The notes under the pieces: generated by a model
What the model saw: the letters and a program-made list of their open reading frames with translations, nothing else
Databases searched by the model: none
What the model was told of the DNA's origin: nothing
Translations under genes and position numbers: made by a program
Virus record (IMG/VR): IMGVR_UViG_2585427735_000009
Origin: a virus
Taxonomy: Duplodnaviria > Heunggongvirae > Uroviricota > Caudoviricetes
Reading direction: 5' to 3' (one strand)
DNA length: 54,182 bases
In this document: positions 16,087 to 20,968 of the stretch, piece after piece
Layout: each line of letters opens with the position of its first letter
How positions within the stretch are numbered: the first letter of the stretch is position 1

Positions 16087-17668
16087 CCAGCATCCCCTTC
16101 ATTTCCGCAGCGAACATGGCATCACTGAGCAGCGTCATCAGGCGGGAATCATCCATTTCACGATAAAGGGCAGGCAGGTCTGCCAGCGCATCCGCCAGCC
16201 CCCGCGTTCTGATGGCATCAATGACCGGCTCCAGTACCGGGTCGATGGCCTCCTGTAAGCGGCGGGCAGGCACCGCGTCCCCCATATCATCCAGTTCATC
16301 ACGCGGCGTGCTTTTCGCTTCCGGCAGTCTGGCTGACAGCGCCGTCTGCTCTGTTTTTTCCTGTTTTTCCGGTGGTGTTTCCCTGTCGGTCTGAGCCGGT
16401 TCATTGCCACTCTGACGGACACGGAATATGGCTTCACCGGGCGTGGGCTGCGGAATACCGGTCTGCTCCCGTATCCAGGGATCAGAAATATCCATCCCCG
16501 TACTGAGCTGCATCACCGCACTGGTGATTTTGGTGATATCACCTGGTTCTTTGGTCTGGAAGCAGATACGTGGCAGACGGCGGATATCAATAGTGTGCGT
16601 GGTGTTCAGGGCGTACAGCGGATACACCAGATCGCGGTTCAGGGTTGCAGCCAGCTGCCGTAAATCAGAATCCCTGATTTCCCGGCGCACCTCGTTATGC
16701 ACCTCACCCAGCGAGCGCGCGCCTTTGTCTCCGGCTTCCGTGGTCAGCGTGCCGCCGAGTATTGCTTTGGAGATGGAACGCTCCCCCCACGAAATCATGG
16801 TTTCAAATGGATCGGCCTGACCGTTTGCTGCCGCCTGAAATTCCAGCGACATCCCGGCCGGGATGATCCCGCCTGTACGTCGCCCGATATCCATCACCGC
16901 CCGCATCAGGGCGCTTTTCTGCTCCGGTGTTGCCCCGGACGGGTATTTCCCGACCTTCATCGGCAGTCCGTACACCTCCAGAAATTCGGCCAGATCGCGC
17001 ACGGAATAGTTTTTGAAAATGAACGGCCAGATAAGCGTCCTGACAAGCCCCGTTGCGCCACCGTAACCGGTCCGTGAACGTGACTGATGCACTATCCAGC
17101 CAAAAGGCTGAAACGCCACCCCGGCATGGCTGCCGTCACGCAGCCGCAGTTCGCTCAAATCATCCGGGTTAAGGCAGAAATGCCCGCTGTCACGCCAGCG
17201 GATGGCGCGGATGATGTGCATTTTACCGAGCATCCCGTGCTCAATTTCCATGCAGGAATAGCCCTTCAGGATGGCATCCGTGGCGTCAAACAGCATGGCA
17301 TCAAACCAGTCTGCGGAATGCAGATATTCGTCGAGCATTTCCGCGTCCTTTTTCTCATTCGCGCTGGCGTTCGGTGGCGGCTCAATACTCCATGGCACCC
17401 CCTGAATGGCAAGACGTCGCTTGCCCAGCTCCGCAAAAAGGTGGGTGTCCTTTTCTTCAATGTCAGCCGCCAGATCGGACTGGGCAATCAGGTCGCCACG
17501 TTCAGCCCCCCGAAGGCACTGCGCCGCCCGGTTCGGGGTGATACCCGAGGCGGGATGCTCAACATAACGGCTGGCAATCTGCGGAATATCCAGCGCGGTA
17601 CTCTGCATCTCCGGGTCAAAGGAGAGAGGTTTTCCGTCAAGATCAATTATGCGTCCCACTACCAGCAC
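16070..17668 (-). CDS. Portal protein (Mu H / gp29-like)
   Basis: 532-aa ORF between large terminase and F-like gene. Confidence 0.85.
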   Translation of the reverse strand: MLVVGRIIDLDGKPLSFDPEMQSTALDIPQIASRYVEHPASGITPNRAAQCLRGAERGDLIAQSDLAADIEEKDTHLFAELGKRRLAIQGVPWSIEPPPNASANEKKDAEMLDEYLHSADWFDAMLFDATDAILKGYSCMEIEHGMLGKMHIIRAIRWRDSGHFCLNPDDLSELRLRDGSHAGVAFQPFGWIVHQSRSRTGYGGATGLVRTLIWPFIFKNYSVRDLAEFLEVYGLPMKVGKYPSGATPEQKSALMRAVMDIGRRTGGIIPAGMSLEFQAAANGQADPFETMISWGERSISKAILGGTLTTEAGDKGARSLGEVHNEVRREIRDSDLRQLAATLNRDLVYPLYALNTTHTIDIRRLPRICFQTKEPGDITKITSAVMQLSTGMDISDPWIREQTGIPQPTPGEAIFRVRQSGNEPAQTDRETPPEKQEKTEQTALSARLPEAKSTPRDELDDMGDAVPARRLQEAIDPVLEPVIDAIRTRGLADALADLPALYREMDDSRLMTLLSDAMFAAEMKGMLDDTGD

Positions 17669-19323
17669 CCCCGTTCAAATTCATGATATGCCTCATCGTC
17701 ATCACGATAACCGCCCTCCATTGCCCGCGACCGCTCCGGCAGCGCCTGACAGGCTGATTCATCCAGGATGAATCCCTCCATGTATGACGCCCGGTTTGCC
17801 ATACAGAGTGCCACGGCAAAATCACCATGGCGGCGGGCGTTCGCAGCCGTTGCGTTCTGGTCCTTCGTGCGCCCCTTGTCGATTTGCGGGATACCATTCA
17901 CCACCTTCACATGGCGCAAATCATCAAGCGTGGTCTGATGGCGGGCGACGAGGATATTCTGATCTTCAAACTCGGCTTTCAGTTTTGGCATCCACTCGCC
18001 GTACCACTTCGGCGACAACATCACGCAGTCGATGATGTCCGGGCCAAAGGCCAGCAGTGCGGCTTCTGCCAGATAGCCGCCGTTACCGGTGGCGTCGAAC
18101 GCCGCACCGACCAGCGCCGGAACGCGGGTCAGGATGTACATCATCACCTGTTCCTGCTGGGCATACGGCAGGTTGCGCAGCTCCACGCGAAACACCTCGC
18201 GCTTTGCCAGGGATTCGGTGATTTCCAGCAGCACAAAGCAGGACAGGTCACCGGTGCGGGCAAAGTCTTCCCCGAAGCTGAAGCGGGAACGGGGATTTAA
18301 TTTCTCTAAAAGCGGTTTTAAATGTTCTTCACACCAGGTTAAAACTTCCGATTCACGCAGCCATGCGGCACGGCTGATGAAGTTGTCCGGGGCTTCAAAC
18401 GTCAGAATCGGGATGTCGCGGATCATCGCCATTTCAATAAGCGCGTGAGGAATATAGGCACCGCCGGATTTTTTCGGGATACAGCCGTATTCCTCGTCGG
18501 CATCCTCACGGGTCGGGGCGTTTTTGTAGAGATCATCACGCCATTTCTGCTCGCTTTCCGGTGACCATTCCTGATCGGTGACGTAACAGATACGACGGTA
18601 CAGCCCGTCCGCAATGGCATCATCCAGGGTTATGCGGTGGACGCTGTAATCCTTGCGCCCCTCGCGGGCTTCCTGAATGTACTGATTAAACAGATTATCG
18701 ACGCCGTTATGCGTGGAGATAATACGCACGCGCGCGCCCCACATAGTGAGCGCCATTGCCGCCTTGAGAAGCTCATCCAGTGACTCGTGGAACGCGGCTT
18801 CATCAATCACCACATCCCCCTGAAGGCCGCGCAGGTTTGACGGACGGGAAGACAGTGCCTGAATTTTGAATCCACTGTTCGGAAAGCGGATCATGTAGGT
18901 CAGAATTTCTTCTTTTTTATCCCGATCCCAGAAGGTCTGCTCATACACATCAGCATCCGCCAGCTGGTTAAAGGCGCGGGAGAACAGGGCGCAGGCAGAA
19001 ATATATTCCAGCGCCATCTCCTGCTTTGATCCCACATAAAACACATTGCGGCCACCACGACGCTTCGGTTTTGCAGCAGTAATGACGTTACGCCCGGCTT
19101 CCGCCCAGGTAAGACCGGTGCGGCGGGGTTTTTCCGCAATGCAGACCTGACTTTCATCCTCAAACCAGCGGGCCTGATAATCCAGAAACACCGGCATATC
19201 ACCGGGCAAATCAAGTCTGTCCGGCACATCCACGCCCAGCAGGGCTTTTTCACCGGACAGATCAATTTTGCGGGGAGGCGTCATTTGTATCAGTGAAGGA
19301 GACGTTTCTTTGGCTTTGTTCAT
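17659..19323 (-). CDS. Terminase large subunit (Mu gp28-like)
   Basis: 554-aa ORF; size and position upstream of portal. Confidence 0.88.
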   Translation of the reverse strand: MNKAKETSPSLIQMTPPRKIDLSGEKALLGVDVPDRLDLPGDMPVFLDYQARWFEDESQVCIAEKPRRTGLTWAEAGRNVITAAKPKRRGGRNVFYVGSKQEMALEYISACALFSRAFNQLADADVYEQTFWDRDKKEEILTYMIRFPNSGFKIQALSSRPSNLRGLQGDVVIDEAAFHESLDELLKAAMALTMWGARVRIISTHNGVDNLFNQYIQEAREGRKDYSVHRITLDDAIADGLYRRICYVTDQEWSPESEQKWRDDLYKNAPTREDADEEYGCIPKKSGGAYIPHALIEMAMIRDIPILTFEAPDNFISRAAWLRESEVLTWCEEHLKPLLEKLNPRSRFSFGEDFARTGDLSCFVLLEITESLAKREVFRVELRNLPYAQQEQVMMYILTRVPALVGAAFDATGNGGYLAEAALLAFGPDIIDCVMLSPKWYGEWMPKLKAEFEDQNILVARHQTTLDDLRHVKVVNGIPQIDKGRTKDQNATAANARRHGDFAVALCMANRASYMEGFILDESACQALPERSRAMEGGYRDDDEAYHEFERGCW

Positions 19324-19571
19324 CAGGCTTTACCTGTCAGAATGCTTTTGATTCGGAACTCAAGCTCTTCAGTCATCACGTCCACGCCACTCAACTCATC
19401 AGTGACAGCCTCTGCCAGCAGCGAATGCAGTTGTTCCAGGGATATTTCCCCGGCAATGCTGAGTTCAGTCAACTCACGACACGCTTTTATGGTTTCAGGA
19501 GGTAACTGTGTTGCAAGACTGAATGCCTTCTGATGAGCACTACTCATCAGTGAGCGGTTATCTGTTACCAC
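19323..19571 (-). CDS. Small protein paralogous to the C-terminus of the terminase small subunit
   Basis: 82-aa ORF; C-terminal ~30 aa (AEAVTDELSGVDVMTEELEFRIKSILTGKA) resemble the C-terminus of the adjacent 193-aa protein (ANAVTDELRGVDGMSEQIEFRIRQMLLGKA). Confidence 0.4.
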   Translation of the reverse strand: MVTDNRSLMSSAHQKAFSLATQLPPETIKACRELTELSIAGEISLEQLHSLLAEAVTDELSGVDVMTEELEFRIKSILTGKA

Positions 19572-19581
19572 GATTCACCTC

Positions 19582-20163
19582 CTACGCCTTACCAAGCAGC
19601 ATCTGCCTGATACGGAATTCTATCTGCTCGCTCATGCCATCCACGCCGCGCAACTCGTCGGTGACGGCGTTCGCCATCTCTTCAGCAAATGCGGCCCGGA
19701 TTTCTTTTTCACGCTTAATGCTGCGCTCGGCGGCACTTTCCGCACGCTGTGCCGACAGGAGGATGTCCTTAATAAGGCGCATATCCACATCGCTGTCGCT
19801 GTTCAGGGATTCGGTGGCAGCACGCAGACGGCGGTACATCAGGGCGCGGGACATTTCCAGAATCAGTGCCGTGGTTTCACCGGTCGGCTTGTCCCCCAGT
19901 TCGGCCATCATGGCTTTTGTCTGCTCGCGTAAATCACGCAGGTTACGGGCAATCAGCTCATTACGGGAGGCCTCCCGGCTGATGGCCGCCGGTGAAAGCT
20001 GCTGCTCTTCCGGCAGACCCGCCTCACGGATCAGGCGGTTGATTTCCTCGCGGATCTGGACCTGCGTCAGGCGTTTTTCACGCAGCATTTCCAGCAGCGG
20101 CTTACGGATGCTGTCGGGGAGCAAATCCACCTTGCGTACACGGCCACGCGTTGGCTTATCCAT
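19582..20163 (-). CDS. Terminase small subunit (Mu gp27-like)
   Basis: 193-aa ORF upstream of large terminase; basic N-terminus, Mu gp27 family. Confidence 0.7.
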   Translation of the reverse strand: MDKPTRGRVRKVDLLPDSIRKPLLEMLREKRLTQVQIREEINRLIREAGLPEEQQLSPAAISREASRNELIARNLRDLREQTKAMMAELGDKPTGETTALILEMSRALMYRRLRAATESLNSDSDVDMRLIKDILLSAQRAESAAERSIKREKEIRAAFAEEMANAVTDELRGVDGMSEQIEFRIRQMLLGKA

Positions 20164-20165
20164 CG

Positions 20166-20456
20166 TTACCCCCTTGCGCGTGGTTTCTTCACACCCGGAA
20201 CGGTGGCGCGGCCTTCCGCCACATCCTGACCCCGGCCGGTCAGTTCAACGATGAAATAACCGTTAACAAGCGTGCGCTTACGCACCAGTCCCTGCTCGGC
20301 AAGCCAGGCAATATGGGTATGCACGGTGTCGCGGGACACGCGGTGGCCGTAATCATCCAGGCAGTCCTGAAGCACGGATTCGCCCAGTTCGCCGTTGTAA
20401 TCCGCCAGCGACCGCAGAATGACAAGACGCTGATCTTCAGTAATGAAATCACTCAT
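20166..20456 (-). CDS. Mu gp26-like phage protein
   Basis: 96-aa ORF in conserved position upstream of small terminase. Confidence 0.45.
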   Translation of the reverse strand: MSDFITEDQRLVILRSLADYNGELGESVLQDCLDDYGHRVSRDTVHTHIAWLAEQGLVRKRTLVNGYFIVELTGRGQDVAEGRATVPGVKKPRARG

Positions 20457-20760
20457 TGTGTTTTTTCCTTACAGCCTGCTCCAGCAGCAGTTCGTTCTGG
20501 TGGGAGACGGATTTCAGGGTGGCATTGGTGGCCTTAAGCTCACCGCGCAGGGTGGTGATTTCGATATTGAGTCTGTTCACCTCCTGCTGCGTGGGCAGGC
20601 CGGAAATCCGGCTCTCCACCCGCTCAACCCGGTCGGAGAGTTTTTCAAAGGCCTCGCGGGGGACAAAGGTTTTGCGCATCAGCGCCATAAAGATCCCCCC
20701 GGCCGTGGCCGTTGCCGACAGGATCGGCACGACATAATCTTTAACGATGCTGATCCACAT
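20449..20760 (-). CDS. Mu gp25-like membrane-anchored coiled-coil protein
   Basis: 103-aa ORF; N-terminal hydrophobic segment then coiled-coil-like sequence. Confidence 0.45.
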   Translation of the reverse strand: MWISIVKDYVVPILSATATAGGIFMALMRKTFVPREAFEKLSDRVERVESRISGLPTQQEVNRLNIEITTLRGELKATNATLKSVSHQNELLLEQAVRKKHNE

Positions 20761-20968
20761 GACCGGCCTCCATGATGCTCTGGCAGTTCACACAACGGAT
20801 GGCATCCGGCACGGCAACCAGACGGGCGGCCGGAATGTCACCCCCGCAGTCTGCGCATACACGCCTGCCCGGAGTATCCTCCACCCGGCACTTACGTGTC
20901 AGCCGGTCACAAAGGGCGCGTTCTGTTGCCCGCTCCATGACTGCCTGAGCACAATCTGAATCATCCAT
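20741..20968 (-). CDS. TraR/DksA-family C4 zinc-finger protein
   Basis: ATG at 20968 (MDDSDCAQAVMER...) with AGGAAA RBS; motif CADCGGDIP...CVNC is the DksA/TraR zinc finger. Confidence 0.75.
   Translation of the reverse strand: MDDSDCAQAVMERATERALCDRLTRKCRVEDTPGRRVCADCGGDIPAARLVAVPDAIRCVNCQSIMEAGHVDQHR

Follow-up and report, generated by a model that had tools for sequence, protein, structure and literature searches.

A small open reading frame at the gp27/TerL junction of a Mu-like prophage: a probable in-frame chimera of an optional junction gene and a small-terminase 3' end

Between the small and large terminase genes of an E. coli Mu-like prophage lies an open reading frame of 82 codons, orf82, which we interpret, with a probability of roughly 0.6, as an in-frame recombination chimera formed at a hypervariable gp27/TerL junction and kept open mainly by its coupling to TerL. 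Its first ~55 codons would derive from an optional family of junction genes, called X here, and its last ~27–31 codons from the 3' end of a gp27 allele abutting TerL. The DNA analysed, referred to below as the window, is the 54,182-nt virus record IMGVR_UViG_2585427735_000009 of IMG/VR.

Results

Gene order and identities

The gene positions given for TerL, orf82 and gp27 in an earlier note on this DNA were confirmed by the ORF listing, which places all three genes on the minus strand (Table 1). A gap of 10 nt separates gp27 from orf82, and orf82 overlaps TerL.

The 193-aa product of gp27 matched the Pfam family PF11985, Phage_Mu_Gp27, the former DUF3486 (E 3.1e-33; residues 12–193, profile positions 1–173 of 173). 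It also matched phrog_426, 'terminase small subunit', in PHROGs (E 8.6e-55) and is 57% identical to Mu gp27; the gene order is that of Mu genes 25-26-27-28. These matches identify it as a bona fide member of PF11985 and of the PHROG group, and its putative small-terminase role follows that annotation. TerL matched phrog_2, 'terminase large subunit' (E 4.6e-43), and is syntenic with Mu gene 28. The product of orf82 is listed in RefSeq as hypothetical protein WP_000255658.1 and matched phrog_30922, a group of 'unknown function', over positions 1–82 (E 1.1e-55, PHROGs v4).

Table 1. Features of the terminase junction, in window coordinates.
Feature	Position	Strand	Description and basis
gp27-type small terminase gene	19582..20163	-	193 aa; PF11985 and phrog_426
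gp27 C-terminal tail, copy A	19582..19677	-	residues 163-193 and stop; aligned with orf82 residues 52-82
Shine-Dalgarno AGGAGGTGA of orf82; overlaps the stop codon of gp27	19575..19583	-	sequence reading
orf82, probable chimeric small ORF	19323..19571	-	82 aa; GTG start; ORF listing
X-family core of orf82, codons 1-55	19407..19571	-	homology to 55-69-aa ORFs
gp27-like tail of orf82, copy B	19323..19418	-	codons 52-82 and stop; BLASTP
TGATG, orf82 stop / TerL start overlap	19321..19325	-	sequence reading
TerL, large terminase gene, Mu gp28 homologue	17659..19323	-	554 aa; phrog_2
Variable first ~20 TerL codons, right-hand part of the junction cassette	19264..19323	-	identity against L001 and L007

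C-terminal similarity between orf82 and gp27

Residues 52–82 of orf82 were aligned by BLASTP, gapless, with gp27 residues 163–193: 20 of the 31 positions are identical and 26 are positive (E 1e-12). When the profiles of the two families were compared with hhalign, a 33-residue C-terminal match was obtained (gp27 positions 161–193, probability 96.4%, E 1.2e-9) and no match was found outside these 33 residues. Conversely, gp27 residues 162–193 also matched phrog_30922, the orf82 profile (E 6e-8). The earlier note had described an 82-aa ORF ending in about 30 residues like the small-subunit C-terminus and had proposed pairwise alignment of the proteins and of their DNA as a check; the alignments, better than chance, bear the description out. 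The similarity is real, far beyond chance, and confined to the last 31–33 residues.

At the DNA level the gp27 tail (copy A) and the orf82 tail (copy B) are only 67% identical over 87 nt, but copy B reaches 79% identity with the gp27 tail of the L001 type, found in related prophages that have no insert between gp27 and TerL. The copy A/copy B pair was not reported by a DNA repeat search with 8-nt seeds. Because this search misses the two tails at 67% identity, recombination between them in cis is unlikely today.

In the AF2 model, which is of low confidence (pLDDT 61), the gp27 tail consists of the final part of a long helix, followed by a loop (172–178) and a terminal helix (179–189). For orf82 four helices were predicted (pLDDT 72).

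The N-terminal core of orf82

Residues 1–55 of orf82 are homologous to ORFs of 55–69 aa that occupy the same position between gp27 and TerL in other prophages. Tail-less members of this X family include P0132 (67 aa) in L007 and ORFs in Citrobacter, Salmonella-like and Kluyvera-like loci; the orf82 core matched the Citrobacter ORF with an E value of 1.9e-5 (hhalign). X was located between gp27 and TerL, on the same strand, in the window and in loci L007, L013, L017, L049, L052, L058–L061, L078 and L080. A search with the X profile yielded 51 clusters, of which only those from E. coli bear the tail and are 79–82 aa long. The X-core profile A8 retrieved the orf82 variants (E ~1e-17 to 1e-20) together with proteins of Salmonella, Citrobacter and Mixta. 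In an exhaustive HMMER search of 1.84 billion representatives, the orf82 profile gave five matches: four were orf82/X variants, including the tail-less P0132, and the fifth was a repeat protein matched over a short stretch only (E 1.9e-4).

The native C-terminus of X extends just 8–14 residues beyond the switch point. With 82 aa, orf82 lies outside the 55–69-aa range of the family, and its last 27–31 residues are gp27-derived and replace those 8–14. It belongs to phrog_30922 and X by profile and position, but not by length and native C-terminus.

Smith-Waterman alignment of orf82 residues 1–51 with gp27 gave a score reached by a fraction of 0.25–0.59 of shuffles, and the N-terminal helix-turn-helix region of gp27 (the RGR..K.DLLP...MLR block) was not found in orf82. 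In a hmmscan of orf82 against Pfam-A no family was obtained at E <= 0.1. orf82 is not a small terminase and not a member of Phage_Mu_Gp27. We also considered orf82 as an internally deleted gp27, with residues 23–52 corresponding to the helix-turn-helix (LPDSIRK...EEINRL). This was rejected, the Smith-Waterman score being no better than that of shuffles and the hhalign match being C-terminal only.

No match to the orf82 model was found with Foldseek in the PDB (best E 1.2), nor by sequence searches of the PDB, and neither orf82 nor the X proteins without a tail have a functional annotation in Pfam, NCBIfam or PHROGs.

Separately, two X relatives weakly matched phrog_220, a group labelled 'minor head protein and DNA pilot', with E values of 2.5e-5 and 1.8e-3.

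Variability of the junction

When the window was compared with L001, gp27 was found to be 93–100% identical until ~60 nt before its stop codon and TerL 93–100% identical from about codon 20 onward, with 60–80% identity between these breakpoints. The last ~60 nt of copy A form a mosaic patch, 60–73% identical to the L001 allele as against 93–100% upstream. The first ~60 nt of TerL are 60–80% identical to L001, and about 40% identical to L007 (10/30 and 15/30 in two blocks), before identity rises to 93–100%.

At least four versions of the junction were found among prophages with the same or a 97% identical gp27 protein. gp27 is coupled directly to TerL, without insert, in L001; the window carries X fused to the tail; L007 has an X of 67 aa followed by a 120-nt spacer; and L032 retains a remnant of X reduced to 4 codons, as does L037. 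The stretch bounded by gp27 codon ~174 and TerL codon ~20 forms a variable cassette, of which at least four versions occur among prophages that are 93–100% identical elsewhere. The suggestion of a recombined module or mosaic junction, made in the earlier note, agrees with this cassette and with the composition of orf82 as X plus a gp27 3' end.

The single tail of L001 resembles copy A in its 5' part and copy B in its 3' part. Such a mixed tail would also be expected if the insert-less type had arisen by deletion between two tail copies. A simple deletion between the two tails of the window was rejected: the 3' half of the L001 tail is only ~80% identical to copy B, with flanks 96–100% identical. 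Because of this low identity, the window type is not the direct parent of the L001 type.

Translation signals

The Shine-Dalgarno sequence AGGAGGTGA is identical in the six junction sequences compared, namely the window, the orf82 loci L004–L006, the tail-less L007 and the remnant L032. The start codon of orf82 is GTG in the window and ATG in its relatives, and only these two codons occur among the variants. Since ribosome-binding site and start codon are conserved, orf82 is probably translated. Fusion of gp27 and orf82 by readthrough or frameshift was considered and rejected: the two frames differ, and a stop codon and the Shine-Dalgarno sequence stand in between.

The GGTAAAGCCTGATG junction that joins orf82 to TerL is the same as the one that joins gp27 straight to TerL in insert-less prophages (L001). 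From this overlap we infer that translation of TerL is coupled to termination of orf82. An AGGT motif that precedes the TerL ATG by ~9 nt could permit some independent initiation of TerL. The remaining two reading frames of the tail DNA close within 4–6 codons.

A scan of positions 18800–20800 gave no sigma-70-like site (1.0 expected), and a terminator scan gave no convincing terminator-like site flanking orf82. As far as these scans indicate, orf82 has no transcription unit of its own and is embedded in the late operon.

Sequence constraint

orf82 is an intact 82-codon ORF in all eight distinct DNA variants, with dS up to ~0.29. Its dN/dS is 0.3–0.6 (~0.4), compared with 0 for gp27 and 0.05–0.14 for TerL. 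The gp27 protein, WP_000360580.1, does not differ among the orf82-bearing E. coli prophages inspected; its gene shows 15–26 synonymous and no non-synonymous differences. orf82 has a weak deficit of non-synonymous changes (binomial P ~0.01). For the tail alone, four of nine changes are non-synonymous (P ~0.03; pN/pS ~0.24–0.33). These values suggest only moderate constraint on the orf82 peptide. An intact tail with a deficit of non-synonymous changes would not be predicted by coupling alone and is compatible with selection for some function of the peptide.

Distribution

Of 230 complete E. coli genomes with a prophage of this family, 25 contain orf82-specific DNA. X is optional at the gp27/TerL position in Mu-like prophages of E. 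coli, Salmonella, Citrobacter and relatives; the tail occurs in one E. coli lineage only. The earlier note had named absence of the short ORF from functional relatives as telling against its proposal, and this absence was found: orf82 is missing from Mu, D108 and SfMu and from each of the 17 Mu-like isolates in the phage collection, and is therefore dispensable for packaging in this group.

Discussion

The origin that we favour is an exchange between a prophage with the order gp27-X-TerL and one with the order gp27-TerL. The left crossover would have fallen within gp27; the right one would have been illegitimate but in frame, joining about codon 55 of X to about codon 165 of the resident gp27. 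The incoming gp27 would have been kept whole with its own tail (copy A), and X would have been joined to the resident tail (copy B), which brings the TGATG overlap onto TerL. The ORF would then be held open to its natural stop mainly through the coupling of TerL to termination at that site; an out-of-frame junction would stop 70–80 nt upstream. On this reading the tail on X would be a by-product and not a designed second terminase-binding peptide.

The earlier note had called orf82 a tandem partial paralog. Read as a local duplication, this would mean that the resident gp27 had its 3' part copied in place, with the upstream part of the copy later diverging beyond recognition or being overwritten. 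The two tails are indeed adjacent and in the same orientation, and in the window both contain 'EFRI', absent from the other gp27 tails listed. However, the other orf82 variants have 'ES' and not 'EF', and the copies in cis are the least similar pair, copy B being closer to the tail of the insert-less prophages than to that of the adjacent gp27 (79% against 67%). The N-terminal 55 residues, two-thirds of the ORF, have homologues without the tail at this position in other genera and no detectable relation to gp27 by profile or pairwise comparison. We therefore do not retain the duplication, which we regard as very improbable. Accidental openness of the frame in a decaying junction, with orf82 being no gene at all, would fit the truncated or frameshifted database members P0008, P0010 and P0011, the deletion of X down to 4 codons in two loci and the lack of a known function or structural match for orf82. 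We nevertheless consider it improbable in view of the strong, conserved Shine-Dalgarno sequence, the restriction of the start to ATG or GTG, the frame kept intact in every variant at a dN/dS of about 0.4, and the conservation of the X family across several genera.

A function for the second tail, which the earlier note had suggested as a possible second large-terminase-interacting peptide, is harder to dismiss, and we treat it as a tentative, less likely alternative. Through the tail, X may reach the partner of the gp27 C-terminus, for which the N-terminal TerL extension is the most plausible candidate. During packaging, orf82 would then compete in the TerS-TerL interaction, modulate it or serve as its adaptor, or X would be docked onto the terminase. 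orf82 retains the helix-loop-helix arrangement predicted for the tail of gp27 as well as the 20 identities, the tail shows the weak non-synonymous deficit described above, and orf82 lies in the same operon as TerL and is apparently coupled to it. Moreover, the 'LLGKA' class of tails co-occurs with an N-terminal TerL extension of 45–50 aa that is absent where the class differs (Mu-like lineages), and the 3' half of the tail and the first ~20 codons of TerL were swapped together, as expected of interacting parts. This co-occurrence is, however, confounded by phylogeny and physical linkage. The tail-bearing form is confined to a single E. coli lineage and a minority of related prophages, while the remaining X genes all lack a tail, and none of the isolated Mu-like phages has the tail-bearing form. 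In every orf82 variant seen, G176 and S178, which are invariant in gp27 alignments, have given way to V and T, and the constraint on orf82 is far weaker than that on gp27 or TerL. In HK97 the C-terminal helix of TerS contacts DNA rather than TerL (PMC11331095). A more specific proposal, which we hold to be rather unlikely, is that the tail derived from gp27 works as a peptide docking onto TerL: the last ~18 aa of gp27 and the first ~20 aa of TerL would be exchanged as a touching unit, the tail that arrived with the TerL N-terminus of the window would now sit on X and not on gp27, and orf82 would modulate its own terminase, either by covering the N-terminus of TerL or as a competitor or adaptor tuning the assembly of TerS with TerL.

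If orf82 arose by recombination as we propose, it is a clean, datable example of phage mosaicism making a chimeric gene, in which an intragenic recombination joint stayed in frame, probably through the coupling of the essential downstream TerL. The cassette between gp27 codon ~174 and TerL codon ~20 offers indirect evidence for a functional pair of gp27 C-terminus and TerL N-terminus in Mu-like phages. To our knowledge the terminase of these phages has hardly been studied, and full-text literature searches returned no paper with Mu gp27 or gp28 as the subject of its title or abstract. Further, optional genes of the gp27/TerL junction are grouped here into a small family (X, plus a second family, Y), whose members annotation pipelines call only 'hypothetical'. 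Should the tail prove functional, orf82 would be a natural peptide tool to probe the TerS-TerL interface; otherwise it would be a case of ordinary phage mosaicism.

Compared with Mu gp27 and PF11985, orf82 shares the homologous last 31 residues, with a similar predicted arrangement of helix end, loop and terminal helix, but lacks the N-terminal helix-turn-helix and the long central helices, has no Pfam match and is 82 and not 193 aa long. Its likeness to the ORFs of phrog_30922 and X is one of full-length match and same position, whereas the other X proteins end without a tail shortly past the switch point. With mosaic junctions that carry optional small genes (Hendrix-type, 'morons') the orf82 locus has in common sharp breakpoints, alternative cassettes and an optional small gene. 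A classical moron carries its own promoter and terminator; none were found around orf82, which appears to lie inside the late operon, coupled to TerL. Unlike in a classical moron, one breakpoint of orf82 is intragenic and has resulted in an in-frame chimera.

In lambda and P22, the small subunits gpNu1 and gp3 bind the large subunit through their C-terminal regions. By analogy with these tails, and with the SaPI TerS variants, Ppi and PICI Rpp, TerL binding or competition with TerS is conceivable in principle for a short peptide taken from the C-terminus of a TerS. The terminase hijackers of SaPI and PICI are encoded by satellites, whereas orf82 lies within the phage itself.

The gp27-TerL junction of the window

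The neighbourhood of the two terminase genes matches the Mu late region. The Mu-like late genes around the locus code for a lysozyme, a spanin, a TraR/DksA zinc-finger protein, a DUF2730 protein (as gp25) and a gp26-like protein; the small terminase gp27 and the large terminase TerL follow, and then come ORFs of 532 and 443 aa, at the positions that carry Mu-type portal and Mu F annotations in the related locus L007. The window represents a Mu-like prophage of E. coli, and E. coli JKHS016 is 100% identical to it over a 1.1-kb segment. In that strain the 82-aa ORF located between the two terminase genes (orf82) is annotated as hypothetical protein WP_000255658.1. A Ser/Arg-rich antisense ORF spanning all of gp27 is also conserved in L001 and L007; rather than being a gene, it most likely results from gp27 codon bias.

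Features of the gp27-TerL region of the window
Feature	Coordinates	Strand	Basis
gp27, 193-aa ORF	19582-20163	minus	PF11985 (Phage_Mu_Gp27) full-length, E 3.1e-33; phrog_426 'terminase small subunit', E 8.6e-55
orf82, 82-aa ORF, GTG start	19323-19571	minus	ORF listing
TerL, 554-aa ORF	17659-19323	minus	PHROG large-terminase families (phrog_2, E 4.6e-43); synteny with Mu gene 28
orf82 codons 2-15, hypervariable	19529-19568	minus	comparison with L004
TerL first 14-20 codons, hypervariable	19264-19323	minus	window, L001, L007 and L013 compared
Antisense ORF, 243 aa	19523-20254	plus	

orf82 ends in a gp27-like tail

The similarity between the C-termini of orf82 and the small terminase, claimed in the earlier note, was confirmed. 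In BLASTP, orf82 residues 52-82 aligned without gaps with gp27 residues 163-193 (20/31 identical, 26/31 similar, E 1e-12), and a profile-profile comparison in which five orf82 variants were set against nine gp27 homologues gave a C-terminal match of 33 residues (probability 96.4%, E 1.2e-9) and no other. Positions 51-82 of the orf82 PHROG profile were matched by gp27 too (E 6e-8). The DNA of the gp27 tail (copy A) and of the orf82 tail (copy B) was only 67% identical over 87 nt, and the DNA repeat finder did not report the pair. The similarity is thus at the protein level and confined to the last ~31 residues. A by-eye likeness of orf82 residues 23-52 to the gp27 helix-turn-helix gave a local alignment score no better than shuffles and no match in the profile comparison.

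The remainder of orf82 belongs to a family of small optional junction proteins

When 1.84 billion representative proteins were searched exhaustively with HMMER, the hits were four orf82/X variants and one repeat protein, matched over a short stretch only (E 1.9e-4). Among the four variants is P0132 (67 aa), which shares orf82 residues 1-55 and then ends differently. Its gene sits at the position of orf82 in L007, downstream of a gp27 with identical amino-acid sequence and behind the same ribosome-binding site as that of orf82; next come a 120-nt spacer and a TerL that differs at its N-terminus.

When reference genomes and viral contigs were scanned with a gp27 profile, the gp27-TerL junction of enterobacterial Mu-like prophages emerged as an insertion hot spot with three arrangements: gp27 abuts TerL with a gap of at most 2 nt, as in Mu (8 nt in Mu); a single small gene, X (55-69 aa), occupies a gap of ~200-275 nt; or X and at least one further small ORF share a gap of 366-633 nt. 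A second junction family, Y (63-67 aa, motif ...STELAL.LYP...EALYLLMQMVDGP..AG), matches phrog_21398 of unknown function (E 1.5e-24) and accompanies X in L060, L061, L066, L078 and L080 (about 2250-2450 in each locus), where the junction is 366-633 nt long.

The X proteins of Citrobacter, Salmonella-like, Kluyvera-like and Apirhabdus prophages align over their whole length with orf82 residues 1-55 (E 1.9e-5 for the Citrobacter ORF, hhalign). A profile of this X core retrieved 51 protein clusters, including E. coli, Salmonella, Citrobacter and Mixta, and every cluster with a source name was labelled 'hypothetical protein'. Lengths were 51-69 aa in all but the E. coli clusters, which comprise the intact tail-bearing form (79-82 aa) and truncated or fused variants (P0010, P0011). 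No gp27-tail score was obtained for the other small junction ORFs. The tail has thus taken the place of the final 8-14 residues of an X protein in one lineage only.

Two tail-less X relatives, in L013 (3090-3287) and L058 (2081-2290), gave weak matches (E 2.5e-5 and 1.8e-3) to phrog_220, 'minor head protein and DNA pilot', at its positions ~917-974, so larger head proteins of other phages may contain an X-like segment.

The junction is a replaceable cassette

Among 230 complete E. coli genomes with this prophage family, orf82-specific DNA was found in only 25. The majority type is without 259 bp; in its example L001, a Mu-like element inside Stx phage LC727881, the stop codon of a single gp27 overlaps the TerL start via the GGTAAAGCCTGATG junction, as that of orf82 does in the window. 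L001 (LC727881.1 35677-75644 and LC727895.1) is the closest insert-less relative within the phage collection, and its depositors annotate the insertion inside Stx1a- and Stx2c-converting phages. The insert-less E. coli carriers listed are mostly O157:H7 or other STEC strains.

The earlier note had read orf82 as a tandem partial paralogue, suggesting a duplicated or recombined module and possibly a mosaic junction. The mosaic junction was upheld, a local tandem paralogue was not: copy B DNA is 79% identical to the L001 gp27 tail, against only 67% to the adjacent copy A. Fine-scale comparison of the window with L001 revealed sharp breakpoints: gp27 is 93-100% identical up to ~60 nt before its stop codon and 60-73% thereafter, copy B with the first ~60 nt of TerL is 60-80% identical, and from about codon 20 TerL is again 93-100% identical. 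The TerL genes of the window and L007 differ only in the first ~60 nt. A fourth junction version (L032, L037) consists of a window-type gp27 tail, four X codons and an L007-type TerL start. These sharp breakpoints and alternative junctions in near-identical prophages delimit a replaceable cassette, running from gp27 codon ~174 to TerL codon ~20, of which at least four versions exist.

In L032 (2093-2125) and L037, gp27 and the ribosome-binding site are unchanged, and the X remnant (ATG GCA ACA GAC) is joined to sequence just upstream of the TerL start, a clean deletion of the small gene. The hypervariable TerL starts read MNKAKETSPSLIQM, MNNAEELSPLLTNT or MSKRTGEEKIKPDTGLIKL among otherwise near-identical prophages, near-identity beginning at the PPRKIDL motif.

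The simplest origin of the window version would be that a gp27-X-TerL prophage exchanged DNA with a gp27-TerL prophage, the right-hand joint being presumably illegitimate and in frame, from X codon ~55 to resident gp27 codon ~165. The 5' half of the L001 tail sides with copy A and the 3' half with copy B. This mixed tail could also be due to a deletion between two tails in some ancestor; identity to copy B in the 3' half is only ~80%, however, so the present window type was not that ancestor.

Translation and selection

The orf82 start is preceded, at a distance of 3 nt, by a strong Shine-Dalgarno sequence (AGGAGGTGA), which is identical in the six junctions compared (the window, three other orf82 loci, tail-less L007 and the L032 remnant). 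The start codon is always ATG or GTG, the 82-codon frame is open in 8/8 distinct DNA variants, and the stop codon overlaps the TerL ATG (TGATG). Both alternative frames of the tail DNA close within 4-6 codons, so ribosomes can terminate at the TerL start only when the joint is in frame.

Pairwise dN/dS was 0 for gp27, 0.05-0.14 for TerL and 0.3-0.6 for orf82. Within orf82, mean pairwise pN/pS was 0.38 for codons 2-15, 0.60 for codons 16-55 and 0.33 for the tail; the non-synonymous deficit was weak for the whole ORF (P ~0.01) and for the tail (P ~0.03, from 9 changes). G176 and S178, invariant in gp27 alignments (Mu included), are V and T in every orf82 tail, and some database members are frameshifted or truncated. 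We read orf82 as a probably translated, moderately constrained and dispensable gene, whose reading frame would be protected chiefly by coupling to TerL.

Against L004-L006, gp27 showed extreme purifying selection, stricter than on neighbouring TerL: protein WP_000360580.1 is identical across prophages with 15-26 synonymous (dS 0.12-0.21) and 0 non-synonymous differences. The hypervariable patch of orf82 (MVTDNRSLMSSAHQK versus MEKNIRALIISARHE in L004, pS 0.33) points to another small recombination tract within the ORF. The gp27 homologue P0013 has 291 aa, covers 100% of the 193-aa query and has a normal gp27 C-terminus, and therefore carries an N-terminal extension of ~100 aa, which may stem from fusion to the gp26-like gene upstream or from a miscalled start.

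Possible role of the tail

TerS C-termini bind TerL in lambda (gpNu1-gpA) and P22 (gp3-gp2). In HK97 the C-terminal helix of TerS touches DNA, and TerS C-termini are frequently disordered (PMC11331095). AF2 models of both proteins, of low or moderate confidence, predict the same layout, in which a long helix ends in a loop of 7 residues (RGVDGMS or SGVDVMT) that leads into a short amphipathic terminal helix. A PDB sequence search found no solved structure of Mu gp27, and a literature search on gp27/DUF3486 found no functional study of it.

A role of orf82 as a second TerL-binding peptide is possible but rather unlikely, and the data can be explained without it. The 'LLGKA' tail class is found together with an N-terminal TerL extension of 45-50 aa that is absent alongside other tail classes, and the 3' half of the tail moves with the first ~20 TerL codons as a cassette; both indirect observations would fit a tail-TerL contact but are confounded by linkage and phylogeny. 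Less likely still, orf82 might be a self-encoded terminase modulator with a tail that came with this TerL N-terminus.

Comparison with known systems

orf82 was already in databases as a 'hypothetical protein'; a literature search on gp27 and DUF3486, rather than on this ORF, found no description of its chimeric nature. The finding is modest and ordinary in kind. orf82 belongs to phrog_30922 (unknown function) and to the broader X family that this analysis defines; it does not belong to PF11985. As it lacks its own promoter and terminator, it does not qualify as a classical moron. It exemplifies phage mosaicism in which a breakpoint falls within a coding sequence.
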